From Polyangiales bacterium (GTDB taxonomy: Bacteria > Myxococcota_A > Polyangia > Polyangiales > Houyiibacteriaceae): DNA of 64,000 bases. Below, one piece after another: positions 2,331 to 13,421 of this stretch. The position numbers were made by a program, and so were the translations under genes. The notes beneath the pieces were generated by a model that was given only the letters and a program-made list of their open reading frames with translations, was not told where the DNA came from and ran no database searches. The stretch spans positions 1,385,693 to 1,449,692 of the forward strand of contig OZ245758.1 in assembly GCA_965227405.1 (NCBI GenBank), in the 5' to 3' direction. Each line of letters starts with the position of its first letter. Position 1 is the first letter of the stretch.

Positions 2331-3749
2331 GCACTCACAAACCTCCCCGCGAACCGGCTGAGTCGACTTCGGCTAGACCTGCTTCGCGAGCTCGCGGGAG
2401 CCGCCAACACGCGGGTCGAAGCCGACGAACTCCATGCGCACGTCGTCGGTAACGAAGGCGTCGAAGCACTTGCGACGTTCGGTCGACGCGCGGTGCTCGA
2501 GGGCGACGTGACGTCGTTGAAGTGGGCGCTCGAGCGACAGCAGAGCTTGGGCGTCGATGACACCAATCTTGCCTGGCGCACGACTCGTTTGTGGTGGCAG
2601 CTCGCTACTGGCGCGCCAGACGTCGACGACGCAGTCTCCGCAGAAGCGCTTGCCGTGCAGAAACGCGACGCGTCACGAGTTGTCGAAACCGCCACGTTGC
2701 GGGCGTGGTTTCTGCTGGAGCACGAGGACGAAGCGGCGACAAAGATGGTTCGCCGCGCCTCACGCATGGCGAGTACCGAGAGTCGTCCCCAAGAGGAGTA
2801 CCTTGCGCACACTCTCTTGGCCCGATTGCGGCGCACGGAACTTCGACCGCATCTGGCGCTTCGAATCGTGCGCTCGCTTCAAGAGGTTGCGCCGCCGATC
2901 TGGACACAGTGGTTGGCGTGGGAGTCTGAACTCGCGGGCAACAACGCCAACCTAGGTGTCGTGGCGATCGCGCAAGCGAGTCATCAGCGTACCGCGTTCG
3001 ACCAGGCTCGAAACGCGCTCGCCATGTCGTTTGCTCCCTGGCGCGAAGACGTGGATGCGCTTGTCGGTGCGCTGGACCTTCACGCCGAAGCCAACGATGC
3101 GGTTCAAGCGTGGCGACGTGGCACTCGCCCACATCCCCCGCGCGGCGTGCATTCGGTGTGTCTCGCGCTACCGGACGAAGACTCGACACTCGCCTACGTG
3201 CTGGCACCGGCCAAGGGACCCGCCGGACGCGTGCTTCGCCCGGGGCTTCGACTCGTCGATGTGGACGCTCTCCATCAACTTAAACAAAGCCAGCGCAAAC
3301 GGGGCCGTGTCGAAACCGCTGCGGCAGCACTCGCGCTCCACCCCAAGGGCATGGCCGAAGACGAGCTCTTCAGCGCGGTTTATGGCTTCGACCACGAAGA
3401 GGGTGTGCACGATGGGGTGCTCGACCTCGTCCTGCACCGTCTGCGCAAAGAACTCGGGGAAGACGGCTCGGTCACCCGCACCGCCAGTCGCGTGTCGATG
3501 ACGCATCGTGGGTTGCTCATCCCCGACCCACGGTGTTCGCTCCCCGTCGACAACCGAGTGTTGGCGGAACTCGCACGCAAACGTGCCAGTGCGAACGAAC
3601 TCGCGGCAGCACTCGAGCTACCGCTGAGGACCGTACAGCGCGTCCTCAAGCGTTTGGCGATGGACGGAGCATGCCTCAAAGAGCGTGAAGGTCGCGCCGT
3701 CGTCTACCGCGTCGAAGACACCACGTTCTCCGAGCCCACGCACCACTAG
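2277..3749 (+). CDS. transcriptional regulator with C-terminal OmpR/PhoB-type winged-helix and a terminal wHTH; N-terminal helical domain of unknown function
   Basis: The C-terminal segment ELFSAVYGFDHEE...LDLVLHRLRKEL resembles the OmpR trans_reg_C recognition helix/wing. A further HTH-like LRTVQRVLKRLAMDG sits at the end. The ORF is open from 1779, but the 5' part lies antisense to the kinase, so the start is placed at the first plausible GTG (2277). Start poorly defined. Confidence 0.45.
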   Translation: MSDPFELASLGNFDAAEHALTNLPANRLSRLRLDLLRELAGAANTRVEADELHAHVVGNEGVEALATFGRRAVLEGDVTSLKWALERQQSLGVDDTNLAWRTTRLWWQLATGAPDVDDAVSAEALAVQKRDASRVVETATLRAWFLLEHEDEAATKMVRRASRMASTESRPQEEYLAHTLLARLRRTELRPHLALRIVRSLQEVAPPIWTQWLAWESELAGNNANLGVVAIAQASHQRTAFDQARNALAMSFAPWREDVDALVGALDLHAEANDAVQAWRRGTRPHPPRGVHSVCLALPDEDSTLAYVLAPAKGPAGRVLRPGLRLVDVDALHQLKQSQRKRGRVETAAAALALHPKGMAEDELFSAVYGFDHEEGVHDGVLDLVLHRLRKELGEDGSVTRTASRVSMTHRGLLIPDPRCSLPVDNRVLAELARKRASANELAAALELPLRTVQRVLKRLAMDGACLKEREGRAVVYRVEDTTFSEPTHH

Positions 3750-5407
3750 ACATCATCAAAGCAAACACGACTTGGGGCGCTTCGATCACCGGTGTCGCCG
3801 GTCCCGAGCTGACCTCGTTCGTTGGCTCCCCAACAATACAAGCGCCGTTGCGCGTCGATTGCGCACGTGTGATCGCGATCCACAACAACATTCTGCCAAT
3901 TGCCGGGAACTCGTTGCGGCACAAACGTGCGCTCATCCACCGTCGCTGCGAGCTGTCCCCGCGCGTTGGAACCAAACGTGTACAACTCGCCGGTGACCAA
4001 AAGCACCGCGCTGTGCGACGCGCCCGCGGCCACTTCGAGCGCATCGATCGTGTCGGTAAGTTCGAGCGACTCATACCCCACGATGTCTTCGAACGGTTGC
4101 GCGCACTGACCATCGCGATTGCTTCCCCGACACGCAACTTCGCCGTTCATCCCGAAGTAGCAGGTGTGGCCTTCGCCGGCGGCTAGACCCGGAATCGACG
4201 CGCGCCCTGTGCTTTGAGTCGGTGCACAAATCACGTCGTCTGCGGGGTCGCTGGTGATCTGTCGCAAACTGTTGCTGCCCCAACAGCGCACGATCCCTGA
4301 GAACGCTGCGCACGCATGCGAGGCACCCGCAGACAGGTTTTCGATGCCGACTCCGGAGCGAACGGTCATCGGAGTGTCGCGCGATCCGCTGCAATCGAGT
4401 CCGAGTTGCCCGAGTCGGTCGCTTCCCCAGCAGGAGAGCTCGTCATCCGAGGACACGCACGTAAAGTCATCTCCGGTCGCCACGCGGAGCACATCACCAA
4501 TCTCTGGTTCGACAGGTGCCGGTGCCACGCCACCGTCACGTCCGAGCTGTCCTGCGTCGTCGGATCCCCAACACAGCAGCCGATTCGATTCGTCCACGGC
4601 ACAACCATGGCGGTCGCCAAGATCGATCGCGTTGAAGAGAGGAATCTGGCTCGCCGTGGGAACAAGAACGTCATCGCCAGGTTCGATTCCCAGTTGCCCC
4701 GCGTCGTTTTGTCCCATGCACAACACCTCGCGTTCACCGGACTCGCGGATGACGCGCGCGCACGTAGAGGCACGCCCCGCACCGACCGCATCAACGCGAA
4801 CGGACGAGACACATGCGCCGGCTTCACAGCGATCTCCTGCGCAGGGTCCGCACCGGGTACCGAAAGGCACATCGACACATGCACCCGCCTCGCAGGTTTG
4901 ACACTCGGAGCACGCGTCGCAGGCATCCGGCATATCGGGGCACGCGGCGGCCAAACTGCGTCGATCGACGACGGCGGGGTCCACACGGGTCGAATCGCAC
5001 CGGCCTGCGCCGTCGACGACAGTGCATCCCGAGCCCTCCGGGCAAGCGACATCGATGCAAGCGTCGCGAAAGCGAAGTGGGATCGAGAGCAGCGACCCGT
5101 CGTCAAAACCACCACGCAGCTCCACTCGCGAAAACGTTCCAGCATCGTCGAGCAACTCCGCAACAACTTGAAACCTGCGTGATGCGTCGTTGTCTTGGGG
5201 AACCAGAGGGATGCCTCGTAGCTCCGAAAATTCCGCGTTTGGAACCTCTCGCTCAAGGACGACGCCACCACCGTTATCGAGAACGCGCACACGCAACGCG
5301 GTCGCACGCTCAGCACTCTCTGGACCGAGGTACAGGCACACCACCGTTTGCGTGACCGGTGAGCTGCACGACCAAAGAGTCGCAACGACAACAAGCAAGC
5401 GCGTCAT
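3746..5407 (-). CDS. secreted RCC1 (regulator of chromosome condensation)-repeat beta-propeller protein with Cys-rich N-terminal region
   Basis: Repeated motifs [41 protein letters not shown], typical of RCC1/ATS1 repeats. The start is taken at [16 protein letters not shown] (signal/lipoprotein-like) rather than the upstream Met. Confidence 0.75.
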
Positions 5408-7825: not shown

Positions 7826-9430
7826 ATGGCGTCAAAACGCCGCAAGAAGAAAAAGAAGCCCGACACCCCCGCGTTACCGCCGCGGGTTCGGTGGGGGAAT
7901 CTGTTGTTGGCGTCGCTCGGCGGCGTGATGCAGTGCCTCGGCTTTGCAGGCTGGAGTTGGTGGCCCTTCGCACTCATCTGCTGGCTACCCATGTTCTGGA
8001 TTCTCGAAACCGAACCGAACATGACCGGCAAGCGAGCGTTTCGCCTGGGTCTCGCACACGGGTTCGTGGGCTACACCGGCGGGTACTACTGGTTGGTCGA
8101 CATGCTGGAGAATTTCTCCGGTTACGAGGGCATCCCCAACTGGTTCTTCGGCAGCGTGTTCTTCCTCTATCACGGCTGCCAACAGGCATTTATCTACGCG
8201 CTGTACCACCGCATCCATCGACGCGGTTGGCCCCGCATGCTCGCGGCCATTGCGGCGCTGCTCACGCTCGAGATCGCCTTCCCGGTCCTGTTCCCAGCGT
8301 TTCTTTCCACCGGGTTCCACAACGTTCCAATCTTCATTCAAACGGCAGACTTTGCCGGGCCCATGTTCGCGAGTGCGGTGGTGATGTCGATCAACGTCGC
8401 TCTCTACGAGATGTGGAAGTGGCGCAAAACACGCATCTTGCCCAAACGCGACCTGATGATTGCGATCGGCTCGCTCGTGTTCTCGCTCGGCTACGGCGCG
8501 TACCGGATGGCGAACATTGATGCGCGCGCCGAGGCCGCACCCACGCTTGAAGTGGGAACGGTGCAGGTCAACATGGGCATCTTCGAGAAGCGCGAAGAGC
8601 CTTTTGAAGGCCACCGACGTCACCTGCGTCAGAGCCAGTTGCTTGAGCGCAACCATCCCGACCTCGATCTGCTGGTGTGGCCCGAAAGCGCGTACACATT
8701 TTTCCTTCCCGAAAGCATGACCAACGTGAAGGAGCGCGTGCTCGGTCCTGTGTCGACACCCACCTTGTTTGGAGGCCTGACGCGTCGGCAAGGCGAGAGT
8801 CGAATGGAGGCGTTCAACACCGCGTTCCTGACCGACGCCGACGGCGAGATCGTCGGCACGTACGACAAGACCTATCTGCTGATGTTCGGCGAGTACCTGC
8901 CCTTTGGAGACACCTTCCCGGTGCTCTACGAGTACTCGCCCAACTCCGGTCGGTTCACTCCGGGCGACCATGTGCGTCCCTTGGTCTTGCCGCACCCCGA
9001 GCACGGCGACGTACGCATGAGCACGCTGGTTTGCTACGAAGATGTGTTGCCGCGGTTCACGCGAAGTGCGGTTCGAGAAGGCAATCCCCACCTTTTGGTG
9101 AACATCACCAACGACTCGTGGTTTGGGGACACCCAAGAACCGTGGATTCACCTGGCTCTCGCTAAGTTTCGAGCGATCGAGCACCACCGCGCGCTTGTGC
9201 GGTCGACCAACAGTGGAGTCAGCGCGTTCGTCGATCCTGTGGGCCGCGTGATCGACACCATCGGGGTGGAAGAGCAAGGCCAATCGACGGCGGAGCTACC
9301 CCTACTGGATGGTTGGACGCCCTACCAAACGCTTGGCGACTGGCCCGGCTGGGCGGGACTCGGTCTCGCGTTTTGGTTCGGATTTGTGGGGCGTCGTAAA
9401 GAAGACGAGAGCGCGCCCGCCGACGCCTAG
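7826..9430 (+). CDS. lnt: apolipoprotein N-acyltransferase
   Basis: N-terminal multi-TM region plus a CN-hydrolase domain with the E-K-C triad context (LLVWPESA; TYDKTYLLMFGEYLP; LVCYEDVLP) and LLVNITNDSWFG. Confidence 0.9.
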   Translation: MASKRRKKKKKPDTPALPPRVRWGNLLLASLGGVMQCLGFAGWSWWPFALICWLPMFWILETEPNMTGKRAFRLGLAHGFVGYTGGYYWLVDMLENFSGYEGIPNWFFGSVFFLYHGCQQAFIYALYHRIHRRGWPRMLAAIAALLTLEIAFPVLFPAFLSTGFHNVPIFIQTADFAGPMFASAVVMSINVALYEMWKWRKTRILPKRDLMIAIGSLVFSLGYGAYRMANIDARAEAAPTLEVGTVQVNMGIFEKREEPFEGHRRHLRQSQLLERNHPDLDLLVWPESAYTFFLPESMTNVKERVLGPVSTPTLFGGLTRRQGESRMEAFNTAFLTDADGEIVGTYDKTYLLMFGEYLPFGDTFPVLYEYSPNSGRFTPGDHVRPLVLPHPEHGDVRMSTLVCYEDVLPRFTRSAVREGNPHLLVNITNDSWFGDTQEPWIHLALAKFRAIEHHRALVRSTNSGVSAFVDPVGRVIDTIGVEEQGQSTAELPLLDGWTPYQTLGDWPGWAGLGLAFWFGFVGRRKEDESAPADA

Positions 9431-9452
9431 AGTCGTGCTCCGCCCTGCTCCG

Positions 9453-9953
9453 CTAGAGCCCCTGCTCCGCGCCACCGTCCAACATCAACTCGGCTTCCTC
9501 GACCACCGACGCATCGCTCACGCGTACTTTTGTTCGCGTGCCTCGCTCCGGTTCATCTTCGTCGGTGTTGTCGAGTTCGATCAATGTTCCGAACACCGCA
9601 CTGACCGCCGTCACGAAGAGCAGTGGAACTTCGGTCCACGCGGTTCCCGACTCGACGCCGGGAATCGCAAAGGGAAGTTCGAAACTGCCCCACTTCGAAC
9701 TGACCCAGTAGATCAACGCGCCCACGCCCAAGCCAGCAACAGCCTTGAGCAAGCTTTCGATCCACGCGGCTTGTTTCCACGGTGGCTTTCCAACCAGGAT
9801 CCCTGCAGTCGCTCCTGCACCCATCGCGAGGAGGTAACCGAGTAAGCCGCTGGCGATCGTCCAACCGAGGCCAAAATGGAGCCCGGCACCGACCGCACCT
9901 CCGATCAACACCCCTTTGACCAACCCCATGACCAGACGCTTGAGCACGATCAC
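9453..9953 (-). CDS. hypothetical multi-pass membrane protein
   Basis: Four predicted hydrophobic helices rich in Gly/Ala; acidic C-terminal tail. Confidence 0.45.
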   Translation of the reverse strand: MIVLKRLVMGLVKGVLIGGAVGAGLHFGLGWTIASGLLGYLLAMGAGATAGILVGKPPWKQAAWIESLLKAVAGLGVGALIYWVSSKWGSFELPFAIPGVESGTAWTEVPLLFVTAVSAVFGTLIELDNTDEDEPERGTRTKVRVSDASVVEEAELMLDGGAEQGL

Positions 9954-10026
9954 CTCTTTCGATTGTTGCTACCTGTGGAGAGTTCCCTGACTTGGGGAAT
10001 ACGCGCAAACCCCTCGAGAGATTTCA

Positions 10027-10818
10027 ATGTATCCTGGGGGGCCGATGGCGGAGCAGCAGAACTTTCTCAGTTGGTTGCAGAGCCTCGACCGTCCTCGCCC
10101 AGGATTCCGACGAACACGACGTCCGTCGCAGATTCCGAGCGTGCTTTCCGCAGGCCATATTCGTGTGGTCTATCAACCCATCGTCAAGCTGCGGGGACGG
10201 GGAATCTTCGCGTATGAGGCGCTGGTCCGAAGCGACTCTCCCCATTTTGAGAGTCCACCTGCGCTCTTCACCGCAGCGATTCGCGGCCAGTGTTGCGGCG
10301 CGCTCGGACGCGTGATTCGAGAGATCGCGACATCCAACTGTCCGGATTATCCGCTCTTCATCAACATCCATCCCAACGAATTTGATGAAGCGTGGTTGGT
10401 GCAGCCCGACGATCCGATTTTCGAGCACTACCACAACATCTACCTCGAGATTACCGAGTCGGTTCCGCTGAGCCACTTCGCGTTGTGCCACTCCGTGTTG
10501 CGCGAGATTCGTGGCAAGGGTGTGCACGTCGCCATCGATGATCTTGGCGCCGGGTACTCGAATCTGAAGTACATCGCCGACCTCGAACCCGACGTGGTTA
10601 AACTCGATCGAAGTTTGGTGGCTAACGTGCACCGCGAGAAGCGTCTCCAGATGCTGGTGCGTCATATGGTGCGCTTGTGCGATGACCTCGGCGCAATGGT
10701 CGTCGCGGAGGGCGTGGAGAACGGCGATGAACTCGCGGCCGTGATCGACTGCGGTGCGCATCTCGGACAGGGCTACTACTTCGCAAAGCCCAGCTTTCCA
10801 CCACCCATGCCCAAGTGA
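10027..10818 (+). CDS. standalone EAL-domain c-di-GMP phosphodiesterase (all catalytic residues present)
   Basis: YEALVR (EAL motif), NIHPNE, YLEITES, AIDDLGAGYSN, VKLDRSLV, VVAEGVEN, GAHLGQGYYF. An alternative Met lies at 10045. Confidence 0.85.
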   Translation: MYPGGPMAEQQNFLSWLQSLDRPRPGFRRTRRPSQIPSVLSAGHIRVVYQPIVKLRGRGIFAYEALVRSDSPHFESPPALFTAAIRGQCCGALGRVIREIATSNCPDYPLFINIHPNEFDEAWLVQPDDPIFEHYHNIYLEITESVPLSHFALCHSVLREIRGKGVHVAIDDLGAGYSNLKYIADLEPDVVKLDRSLVANVHREKRLQMLVRHMVRLCDDLGAMVVAEGVENGDELAAVIDCGAHLGQGYYFAKPSFPPPMPK

Positions 10819-11012
10819 TGGACGTTCCGGACGAAGTTCTGGAGAAAGCCTGCAAGGCGCGACGAATTCGCGGTGACGACAGGTTTCTTGTTCTGGCGTT
10901 GCTGGAGCGCCCCGAAAGCGCATGGCCGGGCTGTTGTGGCAGCGGTTGCGAACCATGCATGGAAGACATCATGAGCGCCGCGCGCGAGATTCGTGAGCAA
11001 TGCGGTTCGTAG
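10815..11012 (+). CDS. small Cys-rich protein with CCxSGCxxC motif (Oxidored-like / OXLD-type domain), translationally coupled to the EAL gene
   Basis: The ATG at 10815 overlaps the EAL TGA stop (ATGA). The motif PGCCGSGCEPCM matches the CCxSGCxxC signature of oxidoreductase-like N-terminal domains. Confidence 0.5.
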   Translation: MMDVPDEVLEKACKARRIRGDDRFLVLALLERPESAWPGCCGSGCEPCMEDIMSAAREIREQCGS

Positions 11013-11554
11013 TCGTCTTGCTGCTGCTGTGGTCGTTGCCTGCCTATGCGGACGATGTGGACTCCGACGTGGAGGCACCTTCCGGACAGTCGATCGGACA
11101 ACCATTCACGGGTGAACGCGACGTACAGATGGAGATCTACGGCGGCGTCGGTTGGTACGGGCCGGGACTTAGCGTCGGTCTACGTCTGAACATTCCGCTG
11201 ATGGACAACGGGTTTGTCGACGAGATCAACAACGCGATCTTCGTCACCTTCGGGGCTGAGCTGTACTACGCGCGCTACACCGATAGCGGCCAGGATGAGC
11301 GCGGCATCGGTTTTGGTGTGCCCTTCGGGATGATGTGGGCGTTCTACTTCTCGGACGCGTGGTCCGCGTTTTTCGAAATCGGACTGAGCCTGTACTTCCC
11401 ACCCTCGTGGGTTGGCGGTGGCAGCTTCGTCGACGATGCCGGCGGCTGGGTCCTCGCTGGCGTGGGCGGACGTTGGCACTTCTCCGAACGCGGTGCACTG
11501 ACCGTCCGACTCGGAACGCCGTCGTCGAGCATCGGCTTGATGCTCAACTTCTGA
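11000..11554 (+). CDS. hypothetical secreted protein, probable small outer-membrane beta-barrel
   Basis: Signal peptide MRFVVVLLLLWSLPAYA. Alternating aromatic/Gly-rich beta-strand-like segments. C-terminal residue F. Resembles the ORF at 51138-51665. Confidence 0.5.
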   Translation: MRFVVVLLLLWSLPAYADDVDSDVEAPSGQSIGQPFTGERDVQMEIYGGVGWYGPGLSVGLRLNIPLMDNGFVDEINNAIFVTFGAELYYARYTDSGQDERGIGFGVPFGMMWAFYFSDAWSAFFEIGLSLYFPPSWVGGGSFVDDAGGWVLAGVGGRWHFSERGALTVRLGTPSSSIGLMLNF

Positions 11555-11576
11555 CTCTGTTGCTTGCTTTCGCGGC

Positions 11577-13421
11577 TCAGCCGACCGGATTCACGAGCAC
11601 TTGCGCGCCCTGCGAACCGGTCACCTCGGCAATGCCGGTGACCTTGGGACCGTCTGCGCTCTTGGACACGTGCACGATCACCTGAACCGCGCGTGCCACA
11701 AGCGTGGCTGAAGTCTCAGGCGAGTGGCCGGAGAGCGTCGCCAAGAAGACCAAGGGGAAACCGGGGTCCTGCGTAGGCGCGGAGTTTGCGCCAAGGAAGC
11801 CGCCACCACCGTGGGAAGCCAGCGCTGCGAGAACATCAAACGCCGAAGCGTCTGCGACACCATCGACGAAGAGGTGGTCCACGCGCATGCGCGCGGCTTG
11901 GAGCGCCACCTGACCCACCGACACGCCGTTCGTCCCACCGCTGAGGTGCATGACGTGCGGCAGATCCAGCGTTGCGGTCGCACCACGACTCACGGCTGCA
12001 ACGCGATCACTCGGGTCGAGCAAACTGGCTAGCGACGCGATCAGCTCAGACACCTCCGAACCTTGCGGTCCGACGACCGCGATCGTCTTGTTGTTGGCAA
12101 CAGCCGCGCGCAACACCTGTGCACCGTCGCTCGAGAGCACGCCTCGGGCCACGAACGCATCGATGTTGGGTCCACCGCCACGACGAATCTCAACGATCGG
12201 TCCACCGACAGCAATGGGAGGCAGCATCGCGCTGACCTGACCACCTTGCGGCAACACGCCCTGAAGCATCGCGCCCTTGGGCGACGTGGGACCACGCGAG
12301 CAAAGACGACGCGCGATCACGCTGAGCATCGCAGCCGATGAGAAGTTGGCTTCGGAAGGCACGAGTCCTGCGCCCTTGTCGACGAGAACTTTCGATGGAC
12401 CTTCGACGACGATCTCCTTGATCGACGAGTCGCCGAGCAACGCTTCGAACGCACCCAAGCCCACGGCTTCGCGAAGTGCCGCCGCAGCAAGGTTGGCGTC
12501 GTTGGCATCGACTGCGCCGCCCTTGCCGAGCTCACGCATCACCTCCGCGATTGCTTTCTTCGCCGCGGATTGGCGGGTTTGATCCTGCACGCCGAGCGCG
12601 CTTCCGTCCTCGAGTCCGGGGAACGCGCTCTTCAACGCACCCATGACCGCAGGCAATCCCGTCGGTCCAGGAGCCACGGCGGGCGCAGGCTGCGGTTGTG
12701 CAGGCGAAGGCGATGGCGCGGGTGCACCGCTTCCGACAGAAGGTCGCGGCGCACGCGTCGGCGGCTCAGGCTCACGATCAAGCTGGAACTGATCCTGCGC
12801 TGGCGTAGGTTGAGGTGCGGGCTGCGCTGGCACCGCGGTAGGAGCCGGCGCAGGTTGCGGCTGTGGCGCGGGTTGCGGCGCGGCTTGAGGCTGCGGCGCA
12901 GAAGGAGGCGGACCGATGGGCTGCGGCGCCGGTTGCGGAGCAGCTTGCGGCGGCGGTGCGGCTTGAGGCGGCGGCGCAGCTGCAGGAGGCGGTCCGATCG
13001 GTGCGGGCGCTGCAGGTGCAGGTGCAGAAACCGCAGGTGCAGGCGCAGAAGGAGCAGGCGGAGGACTCGAACGCAGAGGCGGCGGACCAGGCCGCGGCGG
13101 TGCAGCCGCAGCATCCGGGTACGCAGCAGCACCCAAGTCCTCGACGGTCAGAATGAAGTCGCCGATGTAAACCTTGTCACCCGGCTTCACGACGAGCGGC
13201 GAGGTGATCTTGCGTCCGTTGACGTAGGTGCCGTTCGTGCTCTTCAGGTCCACCACAATGAAGCGGCTATCCTTCAGAACGATCCGACTGTGACGCTTGG
13301 AGACGTTTCCCTTCGGGAGAATGATGTCGTTGCCTTGAACGCGGCCAATTGTGACCTCGCTCTTGTCAAACTCCATCCGTCGTTGGGCCCCGCCCTTTTC
13401 GGTGATCACCACTGCGAACAT
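11577..13421 (-). CDS. FHA-domain protein fused to a degenerate CpaF/TadA (VirB11-like) secretion-ATPase domain (predicted pseudo-ATPase), with Pro/Ala/Gln-rich linker
   Basis: N-terminal FHA: TIGRVQGNDIILPKGNVSKRHSRIVL...STNGTYVNG. The C-terminal ~330 aa align to CpaF-like ATPases (SIKEIVVEGPSKVLVDKGAG...; MLPPIAVGGPIVEIRR). The Walker A position reads VVGPQGSEVS instead of GxxGxGKT. The Walker B/Glu box reads HLFVDGVAD. The His box reads HGGGGFLGANSA. Confidence 0.8.
   Translation of the reverse strand: MFAVVITEKGGAQRRMEFDKSEVTIGRVQGNDIILPKGNVSKRHSRIVLKDSRFIVVDLKSTNGTYVNGRKITSPLVVKPGDKVYIGDFILTVEDLGAAAYPDAAAAPPRPGPPPLRSSPPPAPSAPAPAVSAPAPAAPAPIGPPPAAAPPPQAAPPPQAAPQPAPQPIGPPPSAPQPQAAPQPAPQPQPAPAPTAVPAQPAPQPTPAQDQFQLDREPEPPTRAPRPSVGSGAPAPSPSPAQPQPAPAVAPGPTGLPAVMGALKSAFPGLEDGSALGVQDQTRQSAAKKAIAEVMRELGKGGAVDANDANLAAAALREAVGLGAFEALLGDSSIKEIVVEGPSKVLVDKGAGLVPSEANFSSAAMLSVIARRLCSRGPTSPKGAMLQGVLPQGGQVSAMLPPIAVGGPIVEIRRGGGPNIDAFVARGVLSSDGAQVLRAAVANNKTIAVVGPQGSEVSELIASLASLLDPSDRVAAVSRGATATLDLPHVMHLSGGTNGVSVGQVALQAARMRVDHLFVDGVADASAFDVLAALASHGGGGFLGANSAPTQDPGFPLVFLATLSGHSPETSATLVARAVQVIVHVSKSADGPKVTGIAEVTGSQGAQVLVNPVG

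Follow-up and report, generated by a model that had tools for sequence, protein, structure and literature searches.

Adjoining genes for a stand-alone EAL phosphodiesterase and a four-cysteine mini-protein in one Polyangiales species: a real small-protein family, but not a conserved pair in the genomes examined

Introduction

Could a c-di-GMP phosphodiesterase that lacks a sensor domain be controlled by a separate small cysteine protein encoded directly behind it? This question is raised by a locus in the 64,000-nucleotide stretch of Polyangiales DNA analysed here (the window; GC content 61.6%), in which the gene of a bare EAL-domain protein runs into that of a mini-protein carrying a CCxSGCxxC motif. 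The original prediction described the two genes as a translationally coupled unit and proposed that they form a redox- or metal-gated c-di-GMP switch. A conserved pairing would have given a sensor-less c-di-GMP phosphodiesterase a simple means of regulation by a separate protein; the evidence presented below indicates that the pairing is not conserved.

A bare EAL domain with intact catalytic residues is not unusual by itself. Among 1805 EAL-only proteins surveyed, a partner domain was recorded in only about one quarter and the catalytic signature was kept in about three quarters, and the authors suggested that EAL-only enzymes are regulated mainly through transcription (PMC2952852).

A stand-alone EAL-domain protein

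The predicted c-di-GMP phosphodiesterase is a 263-aa protein (10027..10818, + strand) that matches Pfam EAL (PF00563) and no other Pfam family (residues 40-255; E 7e-49; 166.7 bits against a cut-off of 31.3), with no GGDEF, PAS, REC or other sensor domain detected by Pfam. Its catalytic and metal-binding motifs, whose span from YEALVR onwards was placed at 10213..10791 (+) by motif position and by alignment to the solved structure 6ifq, follow one another as QPIV (residues 50-53), YEALVR (63-68; 10213-10230), INIHPN (112-117; 10360-10377), LEITES (140-145; 10444-10461), IDDLGAGYSNL (170-180; 10534-10566), VKLDRS (191-196; 10597-10614), AEGVEN (227-232; 10705-10722) and GQGYYFAKP (247-255; 10765-10791). 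Judged against the residue list of PMC2952852, all catalytic and metal-binding residues are intact, namely the E of EAL, N, ExxE, DD, K, the E of EGVE, and Q. The stand-alone EAL protein 6ifq is the best solved relative (E 1e-24, residues 47-258) and its motifs align column by column, followed in the PDB match list by other stand-alone EAL structures. On both counts, a stand-alone domain and a complete catalytic set, the original prediction was confirmed, and the protein looks like a sensor-less, catalytically competent phosphodiesterase.

The best NCBIfam match, RimA (NF052265), was scored at 134.8 bits, which is so far under its cut-off of 430 that the protein is not RimA. Compared with the diverged strain L003, the gene shows 28 synonymous codon changes and one non-synonymous change, and orthologues with approximately 80% identity were found in two metagenome-assembled Polyangiaceae genomes (L004 and L005). 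By analogy with most EAL-only enzymes, this ordinary one is probably constitutively active and governed by its level of expression, not by a ligand. Residues 1-40 (10027-10146) form a basic extension, QNFLxWLxxxxRPRPGFRRTRRxSQIPxVLS, which is kept among the orthologues and has no Pfam match.

Three overlapping genes

According to the ORF listing and direct reading, three co-directional genes lie on the + strand: the EAL gene (10027-10818), the small gene (10818-11012) and a gene for a 184-aa protein, p184 (11000-11554). The first junction reads CCC AAG TGA TGG, with the EAL stop TGA at 10816-10818. Within its GTGATG (10815..10820, +), the ATG at 10818 shares one nucleotide with the EAL stop (TGATG), and the GTG at 10815 shares four (GTGA). 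The genes do overlap, as had been described; the ATGA reported for this junction was absent on direct reading of the sequence. The likely start is ATG 10818, which yields the 64-aa product recorded by public gene callers, and the previously given length of 65 aa is obtained only from the alternative GTG 10815. Downstream, the small gene and the p184 gene (ATG 11000) overlap by 13 nt, and the unit, presented originally as a pair, therefore consists of three overlapping genes.

No Shine-Dalgarno-like sequence precedes the start of the small gene. A consensus scan of 9400-11700 found no promoter-like sites, and a terminator scan of the same interval returned a single weak terminator-like hairpin inside the p184 gene, no more than expected by chance; no Rfam family was found anywhere in the window. 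The stop/start overlaps suggest that the EAL, small and p184 genes are probably carried on one transcript.

The p184 protein (11000..11554, +), which has a signal-peptide-like N-terminus and is predicted to be exported, is the recurring partner of the small gene in related genomes. It has no Pfam or NCBIfam match and three close relatives in an indexed search, and it differs from its counterpart in strain L003 by 22 synonymous changes and one non-synonymous change. An AlphaFold2 model built from only four sequences reached a pLDDT of 48 and is mainly beta, with about seven strands and one short helix; the C-terminus ends ...MLNF. A small outer-membrane barrel is no more than a guess for p184.

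Two further neighbours flank the three genes. A 166-aa glycine-rich membrane protein (tm166; 9453..9953, - strand) is transcribed divergently, and its gene adjoins that for EAL in L004 and L005; in L027 its neighbour is the small gene. On the other side, a 614-aa protein (11577-13421, -) is encoded convergently with p184 and combines an N-terminal FHA domain, a Pro/Ala-rich linker of approximately 200 residues and a C-terminal region with a weak, sub-threshold match to T2SSE secretion ATPases; its gene is also kept nearby in L004, L005 and L027.

The small protein belongs to a four-cysteine family

The second ORF, ending at 11012, carries PGCCGSGCEPCM and encodes the 64-aa mini-protein (10818..11012, +), for which three helices and a cysteine loop are predicted. 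An exhaustive phmmer search of 1.84 billion representative proteins returned 59 homologues at E<=1e-3, seven of them at E<=1e-10; almost all are 62-120 aa long and many are located on unrelated contigs. A word-indexed search with the single small protein recovered the identical protein only, on a 9.07-Mb contig and three assembled contigs. All 57 sequences of the alignment (A1) have C39, C40, C44 and C47, and W36 and P46 reach at least 90% conservation, which gives the family consensus WPxCCGSGCxPC, represented in the window by WPGCCGSGCEPC (residues 36-47; 10923..10958, +). Between the window species and strain L003, three synonymous and no non-synonymous changes were counted in the small gene. 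Its codon-position GC contents of 0.65, 0.51 and 0.65 are compatible with coding, a weak indication when taken alone.

The AlphaFold2 model computed from the family alignment has a pLDDT of 89, with helices at residues 5-14, 19-29 and 48-63; the cysteine cluster is placed on a loop, and C44-x-P-C47 directly precedes helix 3. No Pfam or NCBIfam model scored above threshold, and the PDB yielded no match by fold and none by a family-profile sequence search at E<=10. We conclude that the 64-aa ORF is a genuine, conserved and folded protein, and that it belongs to a family, so far unannotated, of four-cysteine proteins some 60-120 residues long, with a confident predicted fold and without a solved relative. 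Judging from the conserved residues, the four clustered thiols most likely hold a metal, as a Zn or Fe-S centre, or form a redox-active dithiol. A reading of the protein as a RiPP precursor was considered and rejected: the radical-SAM/SPASM gene near the homologue in L047 is not a repeated feature, and a fold is predicted for the protein.

The motif had been likened to that of the OXLD-type domains of PF09791. At the level of the motif the likeness stands, the window protein carrying CCGSGCEPC at residues 39-47. In a profile search for PF09791 homology, 12 of the 57 family members gave sub-threshold matches (best E 7.7e-4), and the window protein itself gave no match at E<=1. The one match examined in detail, that of P0052, reached 17.3 bits against a cut-off of 24 and covered profile positions 10-29 of 46, that is, the motif region only. 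With the scores below the level of formal PF09791 membership, it is the cysteine motif that the two families have in common.

Gene order in close relatives

In the relatives closest to the window, the genes of the unit were found in several different arrangements. In L004, the small and p184 genes are both missing, and the convergent FHA-ATPase gene comes directly after the EAL gene. L005 and L033 represent one contig, since they are 100% identical over an overlap of 3055 nt; here small, p184 and Rieske are followed by three genes on the opposite strand (lnt, response regulator and tm166) and finally by EAL, so that approximately 4.9 kb and five genes separate the small gene from the EAL gene. 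The stop of the small gene and the start of p184 form an ATGA overlap in L033, and in both L033 and L027 the gene immediately after the small gene is a p184 homologue. In L027, whose small protein is the closest match to that of the window (64% identical where the two align), the order is tm166, small, p184, followed on the opposite strand by lnt and the response regulator; the region is syntenic, and no EAL gene was found on its 6.3-kb contig.

The arrangement in L050 is different again. Its p184 homologue is 72% identical to that of the window, and the gene upstream ends ...DELAAVIDCGAHLGQGYYFAKPSFPPPMPR, 29 of 30 residues being identical to the C-terminus of the window EAL protein. Here p184 directly follows the EAL gene, the two sharing an ATGA at stop and start, and the DNA alignment has no small gene between them. 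On the P0115 contig, a p184 homologue with 79% identity is directly preceded by a gene of at least 126 aa, which is probably an EAL gene because the small gene alone could not account for this length.

Taken together, the arrangements in L004, L005/L033, L027 and L050 indicate that the EAL-small junction of the window is lineage-specific. Within the clade, the order small then p184 appears to be the more persistent pairing, yet one that can also be lost. The conservation of the small ORF at orthologous loci, which had been set as a check on the prediction, thus has a divided outcome: the ORF is a real gene with its 59 homologues, and its position next to the EAL gene is not kept.

A block comprising the response regulator, lnt (apolipoprotein N-acyltransferase) and tm166 (window 7826-9430 (+) and 9453-9953 (-)) is kept near the EAL or small genes in L004, L005, L027 and L033. 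The orientation or order of the block differs among relatives, a sign that small rearrangements have happened here repeatedly. In L033, a gene for a Rieske and KshA_C oxygenase (2804-3763, +) follows small and p184, with no counterpart at that position in the window.

Wider surveys of the EAL and small-protein loci

Beyond these relatives, the co-occurrence of the two genes was surveyed from both sides. Small-family loci (L027-L039 and L044-L049), each with 1-8 kb of DNA, represented 15 distinct members outside the window species; a metagenome scan with a closer sub-alignment (A2) had contributed 12 loci, and L040-L043 were excluded as unconvincing family members. Through a phmmer search with the window EAL protein against every open frame, no EAL gene was detected in the loci of these 15 other members. 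Conversely, tblastn and the family profile HMM detected no small-family member in the 23 EAL-centred loci L004-L026, and none was present in L050; this set does not include the loci of P0119-P0121, three variants of the window EAL protein with identities of 90% or more. The adjacency of EAL and small genes is thus found in this one species only among the loci compared, and it is not a conserved functional pair; the proposed co-occurrence was not borne out.

The genes next to the small gene vary from locus to locus. A gene for a membrane-anchored BD-FAE/Abhydrolase_3 esterase overlaps it by ATGA in L032, and an esterase of the same type starts approximately 10 nt after it in L034. In L029/L030, the overlapping gene encodes a cytoplasmic GDPD phosphodiesterase; in L031, a gene for a 414-aa membrane protein lies downstream; and in L046/L048 the neighbours are lipoproteins with TSP3-like repeats. 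Nothing is coupled to the small gene in L028, L044, L047 and L049.

The small gene is the first of a tightly linked pair in five loci (L032 1891-3476; L034 ~902-2374; L029 4001-5007; L031 4001-5484; L033 1807-2672), joined by a stop/start overlap in four of the five and separated by the gap of about 10 nt in L034. A stand-alone GGDEF protein of 261-266 aa is encoded in L046 (623-1423, -) and L048 (649-1434, -), 1.6-2.3 kb upstream of the small-family gene and on the opposite strand, in a lineage unrelated to that of the window. This proximity may well be due to chance, because signalling genes are dense in such genomes and L046 and L048 share synteny.

Discussion

Collectively, we consider it likely that an ordinary EAL enzyme and a cysteine mini-protein have been joined in this species by recent local gene shuffling, and that the mini-protein serves the gene that follows it. 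Under this explanation, gene-order shuffling would have placed the small gene and the exported p184 behind the EAL gene in an otherwise conserved neighbourhood. In the clade, the start of p184 is repeatedly overlapped by the small gene, which elsewhere overlaps or immediately precedes other genes, often those of hydrolases or envelope proteins. The mini-protein would be a small cytoplasmic metal or redox cofactor protein serving whichever gene follows, and the EAL enzyme in this species would merely share the transcript of the mini-protein. All genomes that show the shuffling belong to one clade, and many of the context contigs are short (1-8 kb). Within that clade the whole neighbourhood stays together, comprising the response regulator, lnt, tm166, EAL, small, p184 and FHA-ATPase genes; EAL, small and p184 lie within approximately 5 kb in at least two of its lineages, so that a functional link could remain.

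A narrower possibility, which we regard as unlikely, is that the small gene and p184 form a true functional pair, the mini-protein acting for example as a cytoplasmic metal or redox accessory or as a helper in the production or export of p184, with the EAL gene as a passenger of the operon. The overlap of the small gene with the p184 start in three lineages (window, L033 and L027) argues for such a pair, as does the finding that elsewhere the gene overlapping or closely following the small gene often encodes membrane segments or a signal peptide. However, the three lineages are related and shared ancestry could explain the pairing; in L050, and probably on the P0115 contig too, no small gene stands ahead of p184; and the partners elsewhere are heterogeneous, the cytoplasmic GDPD included, with nothing coupled downstream in several loci.

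A broader idea is that the WPxCCGSGCxPC mini-proteins form a class not described before, of small metal- or redox-cofactor subunits acting together with the product of the adjoining or overlapped gene. We think this quite improbable. If it were true, the partners in the loci examined would be an envelope protein, an esterase, a GDPD or, here, the EAL enzyme, and in this species the class would couple a c-di-GMP phosphodiesterase and an exported envelope protein to the state of thiols or metals.

The switch proposed originally, in which the cysteine mini-protein would sense redox state or metals, bind the bare EAL protein as its regulatory subunit and gate c-di-GMP hydrolysis, at a ratio fixed by translational coupling, appears very improbable and found no comparative support. 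Translation of the small gene probably depends on that of the EAL gene, given the stop/start overlap and the lack of a Shine-Dalgarno-like sequence, and the four invariant clustered cysteines would suit a sensor. The second lineage (L005/L033) that keeps both genes within approximately 5 kb and the GGDEF gene 1.6-2.3 kb from a family member in the unrelated L046/L048 could likewise be read in its favour. Against these points, an EAL gene adjoins no other family member examined, and no EAL-centred locus contains a family member. Close relatives retain the EAL gene with no small gene at its 3' end: the pair is absent in L004 and L050 and lies about 4.9 kb apart in L005, and the 6.3-kb contig of the closest small homologue (L027), syntenic with this region, has no EAL gene. 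We give almost no credence to the last reading, by which the small ORF would be an artefact, non-coding or out of frame, in the spacer between the EAL gene and the gene after it. The missing Pfam and NCBIfam matches, the missing ORF at this position in L050 and L004 and the weak codon-position GC periodicity over only 65 codons could speak for it; against it stand 59 homologues with invariant cysteines, many on unrelated contigs, purely synonymous strain differences and a pLDDT of 89.

What remains is one further stand-alone EAL enzyme and a well-defined, unannotated four-cysteine family whose genes tend to overlap the start of the gene behind them. This family may illuminate the obscure OXLD1/PF09791 motif, and its metal content and redox behaviour are of interest.

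Comparison with known systems

The window EAL protein resembles Vibrio cholerae VcEAL (6ifq), Listeria Lmo0131 (4q6j) and E. coli PdeH/YhjH, each a single sensor-less EAL domain of approximately 250-260 aa with conserved motifs. It differs from these stand-alone enzymes in the extra basic N-terminal extension of about 40 residues, which has no known counterpart.

For the human OXLD1 protein, which carries the Oxidored-like domain PF09791, a protective role in mitochondria was reported in 2025 (PMC12413873). A literature search by the names PF09791, DUF5522 and Oxidored-like found nothing. The small family and PF09791 have the CCGSGCxxC cysteine cluster in common, and the small family differs in the conserved WP ahead of the motif, in the proline of the final CxPC and in the approximately 35 residues of two helices in front. 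In PF09791 the motif is followed by CVW..Y, which is missing in the small family. A further likeness is to thioredoxin, whose WCGPC places a CxxC at the N-terminus of a helix; in the small protein, C44-x-P-C47 is likewise predicted to stand before helix 3, with a tryptophan a few residues upstream.
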